Shown here: positions 9,379-18,357 of the stretch, one piece after another
How positions within the stretch are numbered: the first letter of the stretch is position 1
Layout: each line of letters starts with the position of its first letter
Source of the DNA: a virus
Taxonomy: Duplodnaviria > Heunggongvirae > Uroviricota > Caudoviricetes
Virus record (IMG/VR): IMGVR_UViG_2563366979_000001
Location: 1 to 18,357 of that record
Length of the DNA stretch: 18,357 nucleotides
Direction: 5' to 3' (one strand)
Translations under genes and position numbers: made by a program
The notes under the pieces: model-generated
Told to the model about the DNA's origin: nothing
Databases searched by the model: none
What the model saw: the letters and a program-made list of their open reading frames with translations, nothing else

Positions 9379-9515
9379 TGTTTGAGTTTTATATGGCAGA
9401 ACTTCTTCGCCACCGCTGGAGGCGTCTGCGATTATATCGTTTCCCCGGTTCTGTTTTGACCGATTACCGAATACTGAAGAATTACGCCAAAACCCTGACA
9501 GGAGCAGGAGTATGA
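9378..9515 (+). CDS. ylcG: YlcG small protein (45 aa), not in ORF track
   Basis: Manually translated: [48 protein letters not shown] overlaps the rusA stop (TGATG); same position as ylcG in K-12 DLP12. Confidence 0.65.
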   Translation: MFEFYMAELLRHRWRRLRLYRFPGSVLTDYRILKNYAKTLTGAGV

Positions 9516-9600
9516 AGTCAGAGATAACAATCAACTAATACTGTTTTGTTGATTTTTGCTTGTAATTGGCGTTCTGGTCTGATTTTTGTGGAGTAAGTTG

Positions 9601-9978
9601 ATGCGTGATATTCAGATGGTTCTTGAGCGTTGGGGAGCGTGGGCGGCTAATAATCATGAAGATGTGACCTGGTCGTCCATTGCCGCCGGTTTTAAGGGAT
9701 TAATTCCTTCAAAAGTAAAATCTCGCCCACAATGTTGTGACGATGACGCGATGATCATTTGCGGGTGCATGGCCCGTCTGAAAAAGAACAACAGCGATTT
9801 GCATGATTTATTGGTGGACTATTATGTCGGCGGCATGACTTTTATGGCGCTTGCACGTAAGCATGGGCGATCTGATTGTTGGGTTGGCAGGATGCTCCAG
9901 AAAGCTGAGGGCGTAGTGGAGGGTATGCTGATGGTGTTGGATCTCCGATTGGAGATGGATGCTGATTGTTCGAAATAA
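9601..9978 (+). CDS. quuD: Late-gene antiterminator Q (QuuD-like)
   Basis: ATG at 9601 with GGAG 7 nt upstream (ORF-track start at 9586 is a TTG); product [24 protein letters not shown]...[16 protein letters not shown] resembles DLP12 QuuD; position between ylcG and the lysis genes. Confidence 0.85.
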
Positions 9979-10076
9979 TTAAAGGAAAAGTTGCTGTCTG
10001 ATTGTCATTAGTCTAACATTTTAAATGTTGGAATCGCAACGTAGTTATTATCATATAACAGCTTGTTTCCTGATTT

Positions 10077-10105
10077 AGCCAGCCTCCCCAAAGGCTGGTT
10101 TTTTT
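10077..10105 (+). terminator. Intrinsic terminator downstream of Q (candidate tR')
   Basis: Stem CCAGCC (10079-10084) / GGCTGG (10093-10098), 8-nt loop, followed by seven T (10099-10105); oriented for plus-strand transcripts only. Confidence 0.6.
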
Positions 10106-10133
10106 CTAATAAGTATTATTTCGGGTAGGGATT

Positions 10134-10658
10134 TTATTGTTTAACCCATAATAATTCATTGACATTGAATCCCAACTTTTGAGCGGTTCGCGCATAGTCT
10201 GCTTTTACTTTATCTGGAATAGTTGGGGTCCTTGCCAGAATCCATAGGTATTCTCTGTTCGGACCACTGACAAGAGCATACTTATACTCATCATCCAGTT
10301 TGATTACATTATAGCCACCATAGAAGGGGCCAAAAAACGAAACCTTCAACGCTGCAGTTTTAGTATCTCCAGTAAAGTATGCTTTACCTTCGCTCTCGCT
10401 CCATTTATTTTTCGTTGGATCGTATCCACGGTTAAGTACACGAATCCCTCCGTCGTTCCGTTTTCCATAAGTAGCGCTGACCTGTTCCAGACCACGTTCG
10501 AACCGGTTCTCGAGGCGAGCTATTTCATACCATTTTCCGAGGTAGCGGTTGGCGTCAAAATTTGTAATCGGCTGCACACCTTTAGGTGGTGTCGGGGCCT
10601 TACATGCTATAAGAGTGAAAGAGAGTGCAATGCCAGTCAACACAGGCCATAACTTCAT
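10134..10658 (-). CDS. Bacterial lipocalin (Blc-like outer-membrane lipoprotein), divergent paralog
   Basis: 174-aa ORF; lipobox LIAC in signal peptide; lipocalin signature GKWYEIAR plus conserved SEGKAYFTG...LKVSFFGPFYGGYNVI...YLWILARTP blocks that match E. coli Blc as recalled. Confidence 0.85.
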   Translation of the reverse strand: MKLWPVLTGIALSFTLIACKAPTPPKGVQPITNFDANRYLGKWYEIARLENRFERGLEQVSATYGKRNDGGIRVLNRGYDPTKNKWSESEGKAYFTGDTKTAALKVSFFGPFYGGYNVIKLDDEYKYALVSGPNREYLWILARTPTIPDKVKADYARTAQKLGFNVNELLWVKQ

Positions 10659-10690
10659 AATAAATCCTGTACTTTTGATAGTTGAGAGTA

Positions 10691-10740
10691 AGTATGAAAG
10701 ATAGATGATTACGACCGATCACTTAAAGAACTTTCATACT
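10691..10740. promoter_or_regulatory. Perfect 10-bp inverted repeat AGTATGAAAG / CTTTCATACT separated by 30 bp, in the divergent promoter region between the lipocalin and YbgA-like genes
   Basis: Read directly: 10691-10700 and 10731-10740 are exact reverse complements. Confidence 0.4.
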
Positions 10741-10850
10741 ATATTAGGAATAGTCCATAACAGAAAAATTGTCAGTGATGACGCCAGAAAGGCAATTTAT
10801 TCCGTGCACTACACAGTTTATGTGTTAATGAATTAGTCAAGGGGGAGAAT

Positions 10851-11810
10851 ATGATAAAAAAACCTGTGATTGGAATCAGCGGTTGTTTGGCCGGTTCTGC
10901 TGTTCGTTTTGATGGTGGTCACAAAAGAGCTGACTTTTTAATGGACAAATTAGTGGAATGGGTAACATTCAGACCAGTATGTCCGGAAATGGCTATAGGG
11001 CTGCCAGTTCCGCGTCCTGCTCTACGTCTTGTGCGCTCGACGCAAGGAAATATACGGATGTGTTTCAGCTACGACCAGAATGAGGATGTGACAGAGAGAA
11101 TGACAGAGTTTAGTCGTTCTTATATGGACAAATTAAAGGATGTATCGGGGTTTGTGGTTTGTGCTAAATCTCCCAGCTGTGGCATGGAGCGCGTGCGTGT
11201 CTATGATGAAAATGGTAATCGAGGTCGTAAAGATGGAGTGGGACTATTTACGAGCACTTTGATGGAAAAGTTTTCCTGGCTACCGGTTGAAGAGGATGGG
11301 CGATTACATGATCCAGTGCTTCGTGAGAATTTTGTTGAAAGAGTTTTTGCTTTGCATGAGCTCAATCACCTTTACAAGGAGAAATTATCAAGAAGAGAGT
11401 TATTAGCTTTTCATAGTCGTTATAAGCTTCAGTTGTTGGCGCATAGTCAGGCAGGCTATAAAGATATGGGACCATTTGTGGCTGCAATACACGAGTGGGC
11501 GGACCTTGAATCATACTTTGAGGTGTATCGTGATAAGCTGATGGCGATTCTCAGAAAACCTGCATCACGTAAAAATCACACGAATGTGCTGATGCATATA
11601 CAGGGGTATTTTAGTAACTACTTAAGTACACGCCAGCGTAAAGAGTTGAGAGAGGTTATACTTAACTATCGTTCTGGCACATTGCCTCTTCTTGCGCCGT
11701 TGACTCTGCTGAAGCATTATCTGGGTGAGTATCCTAATGATTACTTGCTTACACAGAATTACTTCGATCCCTATCCGGACGAACTGGCTCTAAGACTGAT
11801 GGTAAATTAA
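10851..11810 (+). CDS. DUF523-DUF1722 protein, YbgA/RudS-family putative [4Fe-4S] thiouridine desulfidase
   Basis: 319-aa ORF with strong SD GGGGGAG; N-terminal block GISGCLAGSAVRFDGGHK...RPVCPEMAIGLPVPRPALRL...VVCAKSPSCGMERVRV with Cys12/Cys44/Cys104 spaced like the cluster ligands of TudS-type desulfidases; C-terminal half resembles the DUF1722 part of E. coli YbgA. Confidence 0.8.
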   Translation: MIKKPVIGISGCLAGSAVRFDGGHKRADFLMDKLVEWVTFRPVCPEMAIGLPVPRPALRLVRSTQGNIRMCFSYDQNEDVTERMTEFSRSYMDKLKDVSGFVVCAKSPSCGMERVRVYDENGNRGRKDGVGLFTSTLMEKFSWLPVEEDGRLHDPVLRENFVERVFALHELNHLYKEKLSRRELLAFHSRYKLQLLAHSQAGYKDMGPFVAAIHEWADLESYFEVYRDKLMAILRKPASRKNHTNVLMHIQGYFSNYLSTRQRKELREVILNYRSGTLPLLAPLTLLKHYLGEYPNDYLLTQNYFDPYPDELALRLMVN

Positions 11811-12161
11811 TTGTATGCGATATCATCCAAAAGGATGAGTTCCTGCATGCAGGATATTTACAATCGTAAAAACTACACTATGATACCCAGAGTGTCAGTT
11901 TGTATAAAAACTCTGTTTACGCTGAAGAAACCATTGAGATGCAACTTAAAGTTGGTAAACATGTCAGTCAAAATATATAATATTATGATTCCACGCAGCT
12001 ATATATAATATAACAGATTGGTTTAATAATTTGTCTTTGTGAGTTAAATACATAATTTTATACTTGTGATGCAATGAGATTTTCCTTATTGTTGAACTGG
12101 CGAATATTGATTTTCCACCTATACTTACCTGGTGTAACCCCAATGATATCAGGTGGATAAT

Positions 12162-12893
12162 ATGCCATACATATGTTCTATCATTTTGGTGTTGAACTCG
12201 TTTGATGTCCGAATTGGTAAAGAAGATATTTTGTTTAAAAAAGGAAGTGCTGTTCTCATTGATTACAATTTAAAAGATTTTTTTTCACCAAATATAGATC
12301 ATGTAATGATCGTAGATGTTGAAGAGAAAACAGTTAATGATTTCTTTAAAAGCAACACACTCTCACCTTTTTCTGTAAGAAGGTTTTATCCGGCATACTT
12401 GATGGTGGAATGTGAAGATTTTTCATTGTTAAAGAACTTGATTGCATGCTTGAATTGTGATGGCAGAACTGTGGATGTTGTTAGAAATCAAATATCACTT
12501 GCATGTCTTGCTATCTTATCTTCAGAGAAAATAGTGCAAAGTTTTTTATTTGGATGTCTTAATAGTTTAGGAAGTAAAGTTAAGGCTATTATTCACACGG
12601 ATATATCTGCAGCATGGAGACTTTGTGATATATCTTCAAGGCTGTATCTGAGTGAAAGTCTGTTAAAAAGAAAATTAAAGCACGAAGGCTTATCATTTAG
12701 TAAATTAATTCTTGAAGAGCGAATGGTGATGGCGGAAAGGTTATTAAGCTACAATTTATATTCTGTTGGAAAAGTTGCTGAGATATGCGGTTATGAAAAC
12801 ACGTCATATTTTGTAAGTGTTTTCAGAAGATATTTTGGTGTTCCTCCCCATCAATATTCATCAAGATTTTTTTTAGAAAAAGAAATGATGTAA
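12162..12893 (+). CDS. AraC/XylS-family transcriptional regulator, AppY-like paralog
   Basis: C-terminal AraC-type HTH (LKRKLKHEGLSFSKLILEERMVMAERLL...VAEICGYENTSYFVSVFRRYFGVPP); N-terminus alignable with AppY (YICS.., FKK); ATG 12162 preceded by AGGTGG (ORF-track start 12153 is a GTG inside the SD). Confidence 0.8.
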   Translation: MPYICSIILVLNSFDVRIGKEDILFKKGSAVLIDYNLKDFFSPNIDHVMIVDVEEKTVNDFFKSNTLSPFSVRRFYPAYLMVECEDFSLLKNLIACLNCDGRTVDVVRNQISLACLAILSSEKIVQSFLFGCLNSLGSKVKAIIHTDISAAWRLCDISSRLYLSESLLKRKLKHEGLSFSKLILEERMVMAERLLSYNLYSVGKVAEICGYENTSYFVSVFRRYFGVPPHQYSSRFFLEKEMM

Positions 12894-12954
12894 CGTGATG
12901 CGTTTTAATGATTTTGTGATTTTCGTATTTGATAATTGTATGATGCTTTCAGCT

Positions 12955-12986
12955 ACGCCAGAATAATCGCTGGCGTTTTTCTTTTT
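12955..12986 (+). terminator. Intrinsic terminator between the AraC gene and the holin
   Basis: Stem ACGCCAG (12955-12961) / CTGGCGT (12970-12976), 8-nt loop, followed by TTTTTCTTTTT (to 12986). Confidence 0.65.
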
Positions 12987-13082
12987 GAATAGATGTTCAA
13001 GCCTTACGCTAATGTAACTTCTATACCTTTCCCTCTTCGTTCCGAACCGTGTACACCATCCGTTATTTGCGGAGGTGAGACT

Positions 13083-13298
13083 ATGAAATCCATGGACAAG
13101 TTAACAACGGGCATTGCCTACGGCACCTCCGCAGGCAGTGCTGGCTACTGGTTTTTACAGTGGCTTGATCAGGTCAGTCCATCACAGTGGGCTGCTATTG
13201 GTGTGCTGGGAAGTCTGGTTCTGGGCTTCCTGACTTATCTGACAAATCTGTACTTCAAAATCAGAGAAGACAAGCGTAAGGCTGCGAGAGGTGAATAA
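13083..13298 (+). CDS. essD: Class II pinholin, phage 21 S-type (S21 71/68) with dual-start motif
   Basis: 71-aa product [71 protein letters not shown] is near-identical to phage 21 S / K-12 EssD as recalled; Met1-Lys-Ser-Met4 dual start; SD GGAGGTGA; the ORF-track upstream start at 12993 is rejected. Confidence 0.9.
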
Positions 13299-13504
13299 TG
13301 TCGCCATCATTACGCAAGGCTGTTGCAGCTGCTATTGGTGGTGGGGCTGTTGCCATAGCGTCTGTGCTTATCACTGGTCCGAGTGGTGACGATGGTCTGG
13401 AAGGTGTCAGCTACATACCATATAAAGATATCGTTGGCGTATGGACTGTATGTTACGGGCACACCGGAAAAGACATTATGCTCGGTAAAACGTATGCTGG
13501 TTGA
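13298..13504 (+). pseudogene. rrrD: SAR endolysin (R21/RrrD-type lysozyme) truncated after about codon 66 by a deletion
   Basis: 68-aa [69 protein letters not shown] then AG-stop; matches the SAR domain and E35/D44/T50 region of RrrD/R21 but lacks the remaining roughly 100 residues; start overlaps the essD stop (TAATG). Confidence 0.8.
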
Positions 13505-15665
13505 AGGTTTTCCGCCTTCACATGCCGGGACCATTACCGTCTATGAAGGCTCCAGACCAGGTACGCTGAATGATTTTCTCGGTGCCATGACGGAAGATGA
13601 TGTCATGCCGGAGGCATTGCGTCGTTTTGAGGAAATGGTGGAAGAAGCGGCACGCAACGCTGAAGCCGCCTCTCAGAGCGCAGCGGCGGCAAAGAAATCC
13701 GAAACTGCAGCGGCATCATCGAAGAATGCGGCGAAAACCTCAGAAACGAATGCAGCTAACAGCGCACAGGCGGCAGCGGCCTCGCAGACTGCATCGGCAA
13801 ATTCCGCGACAGCAGCTAAAAAATCAGAAACCAACGCGAAAAATAGCGAGACAGCAGCAAAGACGAGCGAAACCAACGCAAAGTCCAGCCAGACGGCAGC
13901 GAAAACCAGCGAAACGAATGCCAAAGCCAGTGAAACTGCGGCGAAAAACAGCCAGGTTGCAGCAGCTGAAAGCGAGAGCGCAGCAGCCGGTTCTGCGACT
14001 TCAGCAGCTGGATCAGCAACTGCTGCGGCTAACAGCCAGAAAGCTGCGAAGACGAGTGAAACTAACGCAAAGTCCAGCCAGACGGCAGCGAAGACCAGCG
14101 AAACGAATGCCAAAGCCAGCGAAACTGCGGCAAAAAACAGTCAGGATGCAGCGGCCCAAAGCGAGAGTGCCGCAGCTGGTTCTGCAAGTGCGGCAGCTAA
14201 TAGCCAAAAAGCTGCAAAAACCAGTGAAACTAACGCAAAGACGAGTGAAACAAAAGCAGCAGCCAGCGAGACAGAAGCAACGTCAGCCGCAACAAGAGCA
14301 GAGAATGCAGCCCGGATTGCAGAAGATGTCGCTGATCCTGCTTCAGTCCCTCCGCTTCCTGATATCTGGCTACCCTTGAATGATTCTCTGGAAGCGATAA
14401 CAGGGTATGCGCCGGGGTATAAAACAATAACCATCGGTAGTGATGAAATCACTGTGCCAGTTAATGGAATATGTCAGTTTAGCCGGGCTTCATCAGCAAC
14501 GTATATTGATAAGTCCGGGCATATTACCGTGGCAGGTAATAACGTTCCTCGTTTTGAAAAATATGGTTTACTGATAGAGAATCAGCGAACAAACATGTTC
14601 GTAAATAGTTTTAATCCTGATGCCTGGAATAAAAGCGGTGGTATATCTGTAACATCATCAACAGATGAATTTGAGTTTAAATATGGACGTTTCACAGTAG
14701 GAAGCGACATAGCAGGAACGACAACAGGGAGAAATATATGCACAGTTGCTGGTAATAAAGGCATAGATGTGACTGGCGATGATCAGTACAGTAAAGGTCC
14801 GTATGTTACCGCGTCGTTCAGGGTAAGAAGTGATCTCAATGTTCGCGCACGTATCCGTTTTGAACGGTATAACTCGGAAGGATACACTTTTCTTTGTGAC
14901 GCCTATTTGTCATTACAGACCCGTGAACTACAAATTACTGGTGGCAATGCCCAGCTATTAACAGCAAACTTTGAAATCGACCCTGGAAGTGGATGGATAT
15001 ATTTTCAGGCAACACTGAAATGTCTGCCAGAATGGGGAATGGTTGGTACGCAGCTGCAAATTGCAGCCGACAGAGCTGTGGGGTCTTTTGCAACAGGTGA
15101 CTGGATAGAAGTAACCACCCCGCAATTCGAGTATGGTGCCTGTGCAACTTCCTTCATCATAACTACAACAGAGCCAGCGACTCGTGCATCAGATTTATGT
15201 AAATTTCCGCTGATGAAAAATATGTATACCATGCCTTTTACGTTCATGGTGGAAGTCCATAAAAACTGGTTTATTTCTCATAATGCTGCACCGCGCGTAA
15301 TTGATACAGAAAACCATCAGTCAGGTGCTCCATTTATCATGGGATTTGGCTCTTCTGGAACTATCAGTCAGGACGGTTATCCCTATTGTGATATAGGCGG
15401 GGCTAACCGGCGTGTATATGAGTCATGCGGAGTAAGAGATCTCGTTATGGGATTCAGGGTTAAGGCTGACGGCATGACATGCTCATTTGCAAATAAGCAT
15501 ATAAGCACAGAAACAAAAACAGTATGGAAATATATTCGTGAAGCTGCTGTGATTCGTATCGGGGGGCAAACGACGACAGGATTGCGACACCTTAATGGTC
15601 ATATAAAAAATCTCCGTTTCTGGAACAGAGCATTGTCAGATACGCAGCTTAAGGAATACGTATAA
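13494..15665 (+). CDS. Side tail fibre protein (lambda Stf-like), N-terminally truncated, with a LamG/concanavalin-like C-terminal domain; possibly a non-expressed remnant
   Basis: From about 13497 the frame reads [34 protein letters not shown]..., matching lambda Stf from about residue 38; Ala/Ser/Thr-rich SETNAK repeats; C-terminus ends [17 protein letters not shown] (LamG-like motif); upstream part of the 760-aa ORF is the rrrD region in another frame; first in-frame ATG at 13494 has no SD. Confidence 0.7.
13867..14223 (+). repeat. Two imperfect tandem repeats of about 170-190 bp inside stf, encoding the Ala-rich shaft
   Basis: Unit ...[42 protein letters not shown]...AANSQKAAK occurs twice (nt about 13867-14055 and 14056-14223), one copy with a 21-nt indel. 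Confidence 0.6.
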
Positions 15666-15934
15666 TGCGGGATATAACATTACGATTCGATAACAGAGAA
15701 CAGTTTAACGCAATTGTATATGACAGTGGCCTGTTCAGTCTTGAAGAAGAAAATGGGGTTCTTGTTGATGTTATTGGCTGCATTATCGATTACGAGGAGC
15801 CAGAAAACGAAGGATGTACAGGCATTGAGCGCGGTGGTTTTTTCGTAAACATGAGGATTGTTGATGGCAGTAAAAACATATCTTCTTTAATGCCTTTCAT
15901 TACGACAGATCAGCATGTAAGGACATGGGCTTAA
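15665..15934 (+). CDS. Hypothetical protein (89 aa), translationally coupled to stf; possibly a tail-fibre accessory protein
   Basis: ATG overlaps the stf stop (TAATG); no recognisable motif. Confidence 0.45.
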   Translation: MRDITLRFDNREQFNAIVYDSGLFSLEEENGVLVDVIGCIIDYEEPENEGCTGIERGGFFVNMRIVDGSKNISSLMPFITTDQHVRTWA

Positions 15935-15946
15935 TGGAGTAAGACA

Positions 15947-16630
15947 ATGGTTACAAAAACAGTAATTCCGGGAGACATCACCACGCTAAAGGGAGATATT
16001 TCCTCAATTAACGGAAAAGTATCAACGCTTCAGACTGAGATGACCAGTGCAAAGCAGGATATCAGCTCCAGATACACAAAAACTGAAGTTGATAATAAGC
16101 TGAAAAACAAAGTGGAAGTGAACGATCTGGAAAGTGGTCGTTATGGCGGAGATTTTTACCCGCTGACTGGCCGTGAAGCGTTTTATTTATGGGGATTGGG
16201 CACAACTACAGCGGCGGCAAATCTTTATCTTAATCCTGACCCTGCAATTTCGTCTGTGCTGCGGTCAACATCGTCTATCCGCTATAAACATTCAGTAGAG
16301 ACGATAGATTCAGAGCACGCCGATCTCATTTTCAGGATGCGCCCTGTGTGGTACAGGTCGCAATGCGAAAATGACAGGCGTGACTGGGGATTCTATGGAT
16401 TGATTGCCGAGGAAGTAGGAGAAATTGCCCCTCAGTTTGTTCACTGGCGACCAGCCAACGAAGATGATGCACCGGAAACCATTTCCAGCAATGGCCTTGT
16501 TGCCGAAGGTGTAATGTACGAACGTCTGGTTGTTCCACTGATTCACCATATCCAGAAACTGACTGAAAGAGTTGATGAACTTGAGTCAGAATTGAAGTTG
16601 TTATCAACTTCCCAAAGCGATATCGGATAA
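15947..16630 (+). CDS. Small tail-fibre/tailspike-like protein with C-terminal peptidase-S74 intramolecular chaperone domain
   Basis: 227-aa ORF, GGAG 7 nt upstream; C-terminal SSIRYKHSVETIDSEHADLIFRMRPVWYR...GFYGLIAEEVGEIAPQFV...GVMYERLVVPLIHHIQKLTERVDELESELKLL fits the S74 chaperone-domain pattern (S-x-R-x-K ... GLIAQEV ... Y..L.PLLIEA.KEL); N-terminal about 110 aa looks coiled-coil-like. Confidence 0.7.
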   Translation: MVTKTVIPGDITTLKGDISSINGKVSTLQTEMTSAKQDISSRYTKTEVDNKLKNKVEVNDLESGRYGGDFYPLTGREAFYLWGLGTTTAAANLYLNPDPAISSVLRSTSSIRYKHSVETIDSEHADLIFRMRPVWYRSQCENDRRDWGFYGLIAEEVGEIAPQFVHWRPANEDDAPETISSNGLVAEGVMYERLVVPLIHHIQKLTERVDELESELKLLSTSQSDIG

Positions 16631-16640
16631 AGGAGGAGTA

Positions 16641-16934
16641 ATGGATATAACACCTTTTCTTCATGCGCTTTGTGCTGTGGCTGCGCAGGTACTGATTGGC
16701 CTTTTTACCGGAAACTGGGCTTACGGGGCGATAGCCGGTTGTACGTTCTTCATTGCGCGTGAACACACCCAGGCAGAATATCGCTGGATTGAAATGTTCG
16801 GGCATGGCAAGCGAATGAATATGCCGTGGTGGGGCGGTTTTGATCCGCGCGCATGGGATGTGGCAAGCCTGATGGATTTTGCTGTGCCGGTGGTGGCGTG
16901 TCTGCTGGTCTGGCTGTTGGTTAATCGTGGGTGA
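16641..16934 (+). CDS. Small integral membrane protein (97 aa, about 3 predicted TM segments), function unknown
   Basis: Strong SD AGGAGG 6 nt before ATG; hydrophobic stretches at residues about 6-22, 26-39 and 77-94. Confidence 0.55.
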   Translation: MDITPFLHALCAVAAQVLIGLFTGNWAYGAIAGCTFFIAREHTQAEYRWIEMFGHGKRMNMPWWGGFDPRAWDVASLMDFAVPVVACLLVWLLVNRG

Positions 16935-16944
16935 AAAAAGGTGA

Positions 16945-17064
16945 GCTGTATATGCAACGGAGGAAGAAAACTCGTTGCTGGAAGCCTGGAAGAAGTATCG
17001 GGTGTTGCTGAACCGTGTGGACACTTCCGTAGCACCAGATATCGAGTGGCTTATTCAACCATAA
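16945..17064 (+). pseudogene. tfaX: 3' fragment of a tail-fibre assembly (Tfa) gene
   Basis: Open frame [40 protein letters not shown] matches the conserved C-terminus of lambdoid Tfa proteins ([30 protein letters not shown] as recalled for TfaE); no start codon or N-terminal region present. Confidence 0.55.
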
Positions 17065-17607
17065 TAAACAGTATGTATATCATAGGTTATTAATTGTGAG
17101 TTTTTTCGGTGTGTTATTTGTTTGTTTGATGTTATGCTTTTGCGCCCCAAAAGGTTGTTTAGATGTATTTTATCAATTGATTTTCAATATCGTTTAATAA
17201 AGAAAAATTAAGCAAGTTGGATGTTGATTTTTTGTTAATTGAATGGTTCTAATAATGTTTTTTTACTGTTGTTGAATGTGACTTGATAAGAAATGCAAGT
17301 AAAAATGATGCTCTTTTTATTTTAAATTCAAACGGTTGATATATATAGCAAGAGGTTTCAGGTGCGTTGTAGTGAGTTTATGTTAATAAAAAGCATAGTA
17401 AGCGTTGAAAAATGTAACTTTGAAATACGTTAGAATAAAAAACAATATACATATAATAATTTAATCTTAAATGAAATTTATTAAAATTTGCAAACTATAA
17501 TTTTGTGTATAAAAATATAAATGCACATCATCCTGATTATGATTGTGTATTTAATTGGTTGTTATTTGACTACTATCAACTTGCTTTAATTTTATGATAG
17601 GTGCAAG

Positions 17608-18357
17608 ATGGATTATGTTTGCTCCGTAGTTTTCATCTGTCAATCATTTGATTTAATTATAAACAGGAGAGTTATCTCGTTCAAAAAAAATTCATTGTTT
17701 ATTGTAAACGACAAAATTAGAAGGGAGTTACCAGTATGCCCCTCTAAACTAAGAATTGTTGATATAGATAAGAAAACATGTTTATCCTTTTTTATCGACG
17801 TGAATAATGATCTGCCTGGCAAATTTACTCTTGATAAGAATGGCTATATTGCTGAAGAGGAACCTCCATTATCGCTTGTTTTTTCTCTGTTTGAAGGGAT
17901 TAAAATAGCAGACTCACACTCCCTTTGGTTAAAAGAAAGACTATGTATATCCTTACTTGCCATGTTCAAAAAACGCGAAAGTGTAAATTCATTTATACTA
18001 ACAAATATAAATACATTTACCTGTAAAATTACTGGAATAATCAGTTTTAATATTGAGCGGCAATGGCATTTAAAAGATATTGCGGAATTGATTTATACGA
18101 GTGAAAGTTTAATAAAAAAAAGATTAAGAGATGAAGGAACGTCATTTACTGAAATATTGAGAGATACTAGGATGAGGTATGCAAAAAAACTCATAACTTC
18201 AAACTCTTATTCTATTAATGTCGTAGCCCAGAAATGTGGCTATAACAGTACTTCATATTTCATATGTGCATTTAAAGATTATTATGGTGTCACGCCATCT
18301 CATTATTTTGAGAAAATAATCGGCGTCACAGATGGAATAAACAAAACAATTGACTGA
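17608..18357 (+). CDS. appY: AraC-family regulator AppY; the TGA stop is the last three bases of the window
   Basis: 249-aa [36 protein letters not shown]... near-identical to K-12 AppY as recalled; preceded by about 540 bp of very AT-rich DNA. Confidence 0.9.

Follow-up and report, generated by a model that had tools for sequence, protein, structure and literature searches.

Why should a domain that folds a fibre and then cuts itself off be carried by a protein of only 227 amino acids (aa)? This question is raised by an open reading frame (ORF) at positions 15947-16630 (+ strand, ATG start, stop codon included) of a stretch of viral DNA of 18,357 nucleotides (nt), here called the window, which covers positions 1 to 18,357 of the IMG/VR record IMGVR_UViG_2563366979_000001 (Caudoviricetes). 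The domain in question belongs to the Peptidase_S74 (S74) family, whose members in K1F endosialidase, T5 pb1, and MyRF trimerize, template the folding of the trimer upstream of them, and then cleave themselves off. A preliminary description of the window, made from its letters, noticed such a domain on this unusually small protein and offered two readings, a truncated remnant of a second fibre gene or a short fibre tip or adaptor. In this article, we place the gene in a defined position of a modular three-gene cassette for side or lateral tail fibres. We consider it probable, with real reservations, that the product is a minimal distal fibre subunit, which trimerizes, cleaves itself before Ser109, and leaves an 11.7 kDa stub composed of a docking motif, a coil, and a short end-module, without a receptor-binding domain.

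Is the domain really a member of the S74 family? It occupies residues 109-227 and the stop codon (16271-16630, + strand), including a C-terminal helix at residues 191-226. The Pfam profile Peptidase_S74 (PF13884) matches residues 109-165 with 26.6 bits (E=7.5e-6), above its curated cut-off of 22 bits, and this modest score is backed by independent lines of evidence from PDB sequences, from structural modelling, and from residue conservation. A phmmer search against PDB sequences found the S74 end of the lateral fibre protein LtfA of phage DT57C (8hqz_d, E=6e-6, query residues 102-217) and the MyRF ICA domain (7dc3, E=0.02). An AlphaFold2 (AF2) model of the monomer, for which the input was an alignment with 76 homologues, has a pLDDT (the value predicted for the local distance difference test) of >90 across residues ~120-220 and the helix at residues 191-226. 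With this model, Foldseek recovered MyRF ICA 7dc3 (E=1e-5, probability 1.0) and 186 predicted viral S74 models at E<=0.001, together with the endosialidase intramolecular chaperone (IMC) entries 3gw6 and 3gud as weaker matches (E 0.025-0.24). In other words, a profile score above the threshold, a Ser/Lys pair, and a fold ending in a long C-terminal helix all place the protein in the S74 family, as the preliminary description had proposed, and the profile search that it suggested as a check bears this out.

The place of the cut can be predicted from the alignment. The candidate autocleavage and catalytic motif is S109-S-I-R-Y-K114 (16271-16288, + strand, checked codon by codon). Among the 76 aligned sequences, R106, T108, and K114 are invariant (K114 in 76/76), and S107, S109, S110, and Y113 are kept in 74-75/76 (S109 in 75/76). 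Ser109 lies five residues ahead of Lys114, and it aligns both with the Ser of 'SGIEYK' in DT57C LtfA and with the position that was changed from Ser to Ala in the MyRF ICA crystal construct. Therefore, the cut is predicted between T108 and S109, with Ser109, not Ser110, as the probable nucleophile by alignment, and the predicted products are residues 1-108 (11.7 kDa) and residues 109-227 (13.8 kDa). Cleavage had earlier been assigned to an S-x-R-x-K site; the place of that motif and the small size of the mature product hold, whereas the nucleophile and the cut move one residue toward the N-terminus. The domain thus resembles those of K1F endosialidase, T5 pb1, DT57C LtfA (IMC), and MyRF (ICA) in family, predicted fold, the Ser-x4-Lys arrangement at the domain start, and the long C-terminal helix. 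The known domains differ in that spike, fibre, or transcription-factor sequence of hundreds of residues precedes them; the identity of the window domain to them in fold alignments is 11-26%, and its autocleavage is a prediction.

Ahead of the predicted cut, the chain consists of two parts of different character. Residues 11-55 (15977-16111, + strand) are a heptad coiled-coil segment, with hydrophobic residues at 11, 14, 18, 21, 25, 28, 32, 39, and 43 in a 3-4-3-4 spacing and with AF2 helices at residues 12-42 and 45-55. The Escherichia coli alleles of 227 and 234 aa differ by exactly one heptad (7 residues), and the insertions and deletions among E. coli alleles are multiples of 7 residues. 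Residues 56-108 (16112-16270, + strand) are a short end-module without helices, with which the mature product would end. This part has low pLDDT in the AF2 monomer model, G64, T86, T87, A91, and N92 are almost invariant in it, and it is homologous to the last ~65 residues ahead of the cleavage site in the long Stf-type fibres P0113-P0122. The end-module is fairly conserved, not hypervariable. Of the ~110 residues that had been described as coiled-coil-like, residues ~11-55 deserve the name by their helices and their hydrophobic spacing, whereas residues 56-108 are non-helical.

Is the small gene, then, a broken piece of a larger one? The 1.5 kb around it match E. coli chromosomes at up to 97.3%, and 746 of 5,426 complete E. 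coli genomes carry the gene at ~95% nt identity or better; it is annotated intact in 30/30 sampled rows of these genomes. In E. coli strain JSWP006, the region lies at the end of an apparently complete lambdoid prophage (capsid to J, lom, stf), where stf (785 aa) is followed by a gene for 89 aa, one for a 'tail fiber domain-containing protein' of 227 aa, one for 97 aa, a remnant of tfa, and appY. The first four of these genes recur in the free lambdoid phage PhiR55_1, ahead of dinI and an integrase gene; tfa is absent there. Protein searches found homologues of 220-270 aa in ~45 Drexlerviridae genomes of ~50 kb, and the orthologues in intact phages and prophages are of 227-235 aa at the same locus. 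The Nei-Gojobori ratio of nonsynonymous to synonymous substitution (dN/dS) between alleles is 0.09-0.30 for pairs with measurable divergence. Taken by halves, it is 0.07-0.37 for the N-terminal one and <=0.22 for the one with S74, and both are under purifying selection. The gene has a GGAG ribosome-binding site of its own (15936-15939, + strand, as read from the sequence), 7 nt 5' of the ATG. A promoter scan detected no dedicated promoter 5' of the gene, which appears to be part of the late operon.

A local truncation or pseudogene was therefore rejected on the grounds of the same-sized gene in intact prophages and free phages, the GGAG site, and the low dN/dS. The earlier suggestion of a truncated remnant of a second fibre gene falls with it, given that the same 227-235 aa gene is found under purifying selection in intact prophages, in PhiR55_1, and in virulent Drexlerviridae. 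Because the 89-aa gene is in the same frame in the window, read-through of its stop codon was also considered, and it was rejected: the spacer between the two genes is 9-12 nt, and 3/11 loci are out of frame.

The gene does have longer relatives. An exhaustive phmmer search of 1.84 billion representatives (threshold E<=0.001) gave 3,554 relatives of the 227-aa protein, and the closest long ones (P0113, P0115, P0119, P0121, and P0122) are proteins of 735-1,243 aa whose extreme C-termini match query residues ~20/40-217 at 51-64% identity. P0113 bears the lambdoid Stf N-terminal domain (Pfam phage_tail_N), and the C-terminus of P0115, ...ELESELKLLSTSRSDIG, is almost identical to that of the window protein. 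In the protein family phrog_3299, the window protein aligns to columns 1147-1384 of 1385. What the long prophage fibres of the Stf type have in common with the small protein lies in their last ~190 residues, namely a 'YTKTEV' segment, the end-module, RSTSS.RYK, and the S74 domain. They differ from it in that the module is covalently part of a fibre of 540-1240 aa with its own tail-attachment N-terminus; in the window, it is a separate gene in which a docking motif and a heptad coil replace the fibre. On the basis of this C-terminal identity, the small gene is a mosaic of a docking motif, a few heptads, and the terminal module of a long fibre with its chaperone domain. A search for full-length homologues had been proposed as a check; the long fibres that end in a homologous module of ~190 aa make the gene an evolutionary relative of fibre 3' ends, not the product of a local deletion.

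The same kinship could be taken to mean that the gene is a functionless leftover, the displaced 3' end of a long Stf-type fibre gene that is open by chance. The 52-61% identity of residues ~20/40-227 to the last ~190 residues of P0113-P0122, the position of the phrog_3299 alignment at the profile end, and the decay of the surrounding prophage in the window would all fit. We nevertheless judge it very improbable, and for the family it is largely refuted: the gene is carried by 746 E. coli genomes with all sampled rows intact and also by virulent phages with compact genomes, dN/dS is ~0.1-0.3, and 57% identity is kept between lambdoid phages and Drexlerviridae. The same is indicated by a ribosome-binding site that belongs to the gene itself and by an N-terminal motif that is conserved here and absent from the long fibres.

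The neighbourhood of the gene indicates what it may be instead. Its position was checked in the window and at the collected loci L001-L004 and L007-L017, and in all of these the gene comes third, directly behind neighbours that are pairwise homologous. The cassette opens with the proximal fibre, whose head is galectin/GTA-spike-like; a protein of 85-93 aa is next, and the S74-bearing protein closes it. In the window, the distal 441 residues of Stf are the GTA-spike/lectin-like head (NCBIfam NF048003), and relatives of this head occur in 218 phage records, including T5-like, rV5-like, Queuovirinae, Dhillonvirus, and lambda-like phages. The second gene (15665-15934, + strand, phrog_1361) encodes an 89-aa protein and is translationally coupled to stf, with its start overlapping the stf stop (TAATG). 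A profile search with it gave 363 relatives, proteins of 85-93 aa, and in 45 records the gene stands directly 3' of that fibre. All family copies examined end in ...R-x-W-A (W-M in EC958); the AF2 model of the 89-aa protein is of low confidence (pLDDT 65) and has a ferredoxin-like order of elements. This protein could be a connector or an assembly factor.

The third gene varies from phage to phage. SECphi27 encodes, one after another, a tail protein of 664 aa, a protein of 92 aa, and a 'chaperone of endosialidase' of 235 aa, with identities to the window of 41% for the proximal fibre, 30% for the small protein, and 57% for the S74 protein. The same gene order is found in the T5-like phages IrisVonRoten, AKFV33, and HMD-P4, in the Seuratvirus phages SA126VB and KurtStettler, and in the Dhillonvirus phage KarlBarth, where the third genes encode 333, 510, or 557-586 aa (split into 98+196 aa in KarlBarth) and bear an S74 domain, except for the KarlBarth pair. 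The sibling lambdoid phages PhiR11_1 and PhiR47_1 have 89-aa genes that are 93-98% identical, and in PhiR47_1 the Stf head is 99% identical; their third gene encodes a 346-aa S74 protein that starts MVTKTVIPDDIKTLK and is cut short at 294 aa in PhiR47_1. Differing third genes behind the same neighbours indicate that the third position is an exchangeable slot. The cassette is conserved across five groups (lambdoid phages, Drexlerviridae, T5-like phages, Queuovirinae/Seuratvirus, and Dhillonvirus), and the 227-aa gene is the slot's shortest S74-bearing allele. In place of the 400+ residue insert of IrisVonRoten Gp24, AKFV33, and SA126VB, it has ~90 residues, with no recognizable receptor-binding domain.

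It should be mentioned that some members of the slot and some relatives are of unusual build. The 510-aa homologue of KurtStettler (L015, 3501-5033) has its S74 domain in the middle of the protein (residues 208-259 by Pfam), a position that is unusual for S74, followed by ~180 residues, the last of which form a Pro/Thr-rich, Cys-Cys tail. KarlBarth gp30/gp31 (L017, 3501-4380) comprise a 98-aa motif-bearing protein and an overlapping 196-aa Phage_tail_C_2 protein, without S74, and they are either one gene that has been split or frameshifted or a distal subunit in two pieces. On the metagenomic contig L006 (5343-7140), a 379-aa S74 protein, whose S74 domain is related to that of the window, is encoded beside a Pin/Gin-type invertase gene and next to a tail-assembly-chaperone gene in the opposite orientation, an arrangement that suggests an invertible fibre-tip segment. 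The names given to the gene vary from record to record among 'tail fiber domain-containing protein', 'chaperone of endosialidase', and 'putative lateral tail fiber chaperone'.

The products of the slot share their beginnings. Codons 1-16 of the window gene (15947-15994, + strand) encode MVTKTVIPGDITTLKG, a putative docking element recognized in alignments of third-gene products, for which the consensus start is M-(V/T/A)-T-x-T-x-I-P-x-D-I-T-x-L-K. The corresponding starts are MVTKTVIPTDITKLKN in IrisVonRoten Gp24 (opening letters MVTKTVIPTDITKLK), MTTYTNIPQDITKLKD in AKFV33, and MVTKTNIPADITALKN in KarlBarth gp30. Compared with 10 other loci, 10-14/16 of the motif residues are kept with just 25-42/48 nt identical, and many of the nucleotide differences are synonymous third-position changes. 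Because the residues are kept despite the divergence of the nucleotides, the conservation acts on the protein and not on a DNA recombination site. A tblastn search with the first 25 aa found 115 phage records, of which ~108 are of the coliphage type and seven, from Aeromonas jumbo phages, are coiled-coil noise; every listed match that could be cross-checked falls on the beginning of the third gene. When lambdoid copies are compared with those of Drexlerviridae, the identity is 72% in the N-terminal motif and 72% in the S74 core, against 36% in the coiled coil and 59% in the pre-cleavage end-module. Together with the place of the gene in the distal-subunit slot, this motif favours the other early suggestion, a short fibre tip or adaptor.

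How would such a subunit work? By analogy with other S74 proteins, three chains of 227 aa would associate through their S74 domains, the S74 trimer would template the trimeric folding of the heptad coiled coil and the short end-module upstream of it, and it would then cut itself off ahead of Ser109 to leave a stub of 3 x 11.7 kDa. The N-terminus of the stub may dock on the proximal fibre, as the conservation of the motif and the published models of IrisVonRoten suggest, possibly with the assistance of the 89-aa protein. The docking motif and the cleavage site are just ~90 residues apart, which leaves no room for the receptor-binding domains of the 333-586 aa alleles; this, together with the fairly conserved end-module, argues for a cap or minimal tip rather than an O-antigen-specific adhesin. 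The stub would thus probably be a structural cap or minimal tip, and receptor recognition would be left to the lectin-like head of the proximal fibre, or else the stub would bind a conserved rather than a variable ligand.

The nearest model for this arrangement is the distal fibre protein of phage IrisVonRoten (Bas32). In the AlphaFold-Multimer models of Humolli et al. (2025, PMC11990801), its Gp24 attaches to Gp22, the proximal fibre, whose C-terminal domain is galectin-like. Gp24 and the other 'T-shaped' distal fibres (AKFV33 orf135 and SA126VB gp24) resemble the window protein in being encoded by the third gene after a homologous proximal fibre and an 88-92 aa protein, in the N-terminus MVTKTVIP.DIT.LK, and in a C-terminal S74 domain with the Ser/Lys pair, and for one of these products, Gp24, docking on the proximal fibre has been modelled (PMC11990801). 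They differ from it in size (557-586 aa) and in having two receptor-binding domains between the N-terminus and S74, where the window protein has a coiled coil and an end-module.

A precedent for a lateral fibre made of two S74 proteins is provided by phage DT57C, in which LtfA and LtfB are separately encoded, both S74-bearing, and form a branched fibre with the second attached via the first (Golomidova 2016, PMC4728585). Within the single polypeptide of DT57C LtfA stands the segment 'NNLSDLADRAAAWLNVRPIGSTP', which in AKFV33 and IrisVonRoten follows the motif at the start of the third gene; the internal place of this segment in LtfA fits the third gene as the distal continuation of a fibre. 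DT57C LtfB differs from the slot's products in its N-terminus (MSRPLMPKSG...), where the motif is absent, in having no 89-aa gene between ltfA and ltfB, and in its other type of proximal fibre. We also considered that the motif might be the published docking domain of LtfB and phiEco32 gp15 and rejected this, given that DT57C LtfB begins otherwise; the likeness is an analogy.

Several points weigh against a distal fibre subunit. The one virion proteome found for a phage that carries the small gene, that of swan01, is shallow: five proteins were detected, none of them from the fibre locus. The case for docking is built on the conserved motif and on models that others made for a homologue of far greater size. 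It is not obvious what selection would gain from a stub that lacks a receptor-binding domain, and still the stub is conserved. In GenBank, some of the homologues are called 'putative lateral tail fiber chaperone', a name that also stands on a 510-aa homologue and seems to be derived from the name of the Pfam family. Moreover, the small-gene phages are without tfa, so something else must help Stf to fold. The SH6 paper, which we looked at as a source of virion proteomics, was set aside, as it concerns a different, large S74 fibre.

The last two of these points lead to a trans-acting assembly chaperone, in which the S74 trimer or the whole protein would fold the neighbouring Stf in place of Tfa and would not enter the virion. 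That the intact lambdoid versions have no tfa gene but a remnant, that in some GenBank records homologues bear the names 'putative lateral tail fiber chaperone' and 'chaperone of endosialidase', that a receptor-binding domain would not fit into the mature part, and that the S74 protein is better conserved than the fibre that precedes it (57% vs 41%) all agree with such a role. To our knowledge, however, S74 domains have been shown to act solely on their own polypeptide, and the cleavage motif R-S-T-S-S-x-(R/K)-Y-K is essentially invariant here, which would be purposeless unless the protein's own N-terminal part were released. That N-terminal half is under purifying selection, and its first 16 residues are common to proteins of 333-586 aa that are clearly fibres with receptor-binding domains; the 'chaperone' label on the 510-aa homologue was apparently copied from the Pfam family name. 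Lambda Tfa, Mu U, and T4 gp38 are likewise small genes 3' of a fibre gene, and the GenBank names of some homologues of the S74 protein hint at a shared chaperone role. They differ in having no sequence or profile similarity to the 227-aa protein (Pfam, PHROGs, and NCBIfam) and no self-cleaving domain. If a chaperone is encoded in the cassette, the translationally coupled 89-aa protein is the better candidate, and we regard such a role for the S74 protein as rather unlikely.

Doubtful too, if by a trace less so, is an independent short fibre or whisker, that is, a trimeric self-cleaving structural protein that sits not at the tip of Stf but elsewhere, for example at the tail tip, at the collar, or on nothing but the 89-aa protein. 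A trimeric coiled coil with a removable trimerization domain recalls T4 fibritin, and the same S74 allele is paired with proximal fibres and small proteins that are just ~28-50% identical, so that its partner may be something more conserved. This is opposed by the strict linkage to the pair of fibre and small protein in five groups whose tail-tip proteins differ, and by the published models that put the large homologue on the proximal fibre.

There is also a small chance, on a par with that of the trans-acting chaperone, that the protein is no fibre tip at all and would be the first intermolecular S74 protein, either nucleating the folding of the separately encoded Stf or of whichever fibre is at hand, or leaving its stub as a removable cap or plug. 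If this were true, a stub plugging the docking site of the proximal fibre would be a 'blank' cartridge that controls the exposure of the lectin-like head.

The copy in the window itself stands in a decayed setting. The window is a cryptic prophage of the DLP12 locus, with genes for an integrase, an inverse-autotransporter adhesin, RusA, antiterminator Q, a lipocalin, AraC-type regulators, and a holin, followed by the fibre cassette and appY. Its first cassette gene is a chimeric ORF, rrrD'::'stf (13383-15665, + strand, 760 aa), in which stf runs from ~13495 with its first ~62 codons lost. The stf part consists of an Ala/Ser/Thr-rich coiled-coil shaft followed by the C-terminal GTA-spike/galectin-like head (NCBIfam GTA_spike_fiber, aa 397-602 of the chimeric ORF). 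Pfam phage_tail_N matches the chimeric ORF from profile position 62 onward only, blastn homology to intact stf genes begins at 13495 (~stf codon 63), and 5' of that position lie essD and the 5' end of rrrD at 99.8% identity. The rrrD/stf junction was found in no complete E. coli genome of the collection. The deletion at ~13495 removed all lysis-distal, head, and tail genes. The idea of truncation in the preliminary description, which does not hold for the S74 gene, thus applies to the neighbouring stf, a point that it had missed, and the prophage as a whole is a remnant.

With the tail-attachment end of stf lost and no tail genes left, the window copy of the cassette most probably lies idle, unless a further prophage of the same cell makes use of it. 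Q is intact (9586-9978), and the orphaned cassette might therefore still be transcribed through Q-dependent read-through. A terminator-like hairpin lies at 12955-12976, just 5' of the holin gene, in the position of the lambdoid tR'. Within the stf shaft, direct repeats of ~168 bp (13842-14009 and 14031-14198) are 88-90% identical and are a likely source of variation in the length of the fibre shaft.

Behind the S74 gene, the lambdoid copies have a fourth gene, which encodes a 97-aa predicted membrane protein (16641-16934, + strand, phrog_1443, E=3.7e-59) with three hydrophobic segments and is preceded by AAGGAGG, a strong ribosome-binding site. L001, L002, L010, L011, and L014 carry it, and it is absent 3' of the S74 gene in Drexlerviridae. 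The 97-aa protein has no Pfam or NCBIfam match, and PADLOC, used as a check for defence genes and morons, had no match for the 227-, 89-, or 97-aa proteins. It is probably not part of the fibre and could be a moron or a superinfection-exclusion membrane protein. Next comes the remnant of the 3' end of tfa (16954-17064, + strand); in L001, L012, and L013, PGAP labels the corresponding position 'tail fiber assembly protein, incomplete'. At the other side of the window, between the integrase gene and the RusA/Q region, lies the gene for the inverse autotransporter (2672-6583), a protein of 1,303 aa with an intimin/invasin-type beta-domain and Big_1/Invasin_D3 repeats.

Nothing known is overturned by these observations, which describe a fairly ordinary case of tail-fibre modularity. 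Two-protein lateral fibres with S74 domains were already known (PMC4728585, PMC10713586, PMC11990801), and hundreds of genomes already carry an annotation of the small gene. In the literature that we searched, we found neither the small protein assigned to the distal-subunit slot, nor its status as a minimal allele recognized, nor the shared 16-residue motif described. A prophage gene that is widespread in E. coli and has had vague annotations thereby receives a definite place in a modular three-gene lateral-fibre cassette. Among the natural S74 substrates that we found, the 227-aa form is the smallest, with 108 residues left after the predicted cleavage, and it could be a convenient model for the folding and cutting carried out by the chaperone domain. 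The 16-residue N-terminal motif marks exchangeable distal subunits, which is useful for annotation, and as a natural junction for the swapping of receptor-binding modules it is also useful for host-range engineering.

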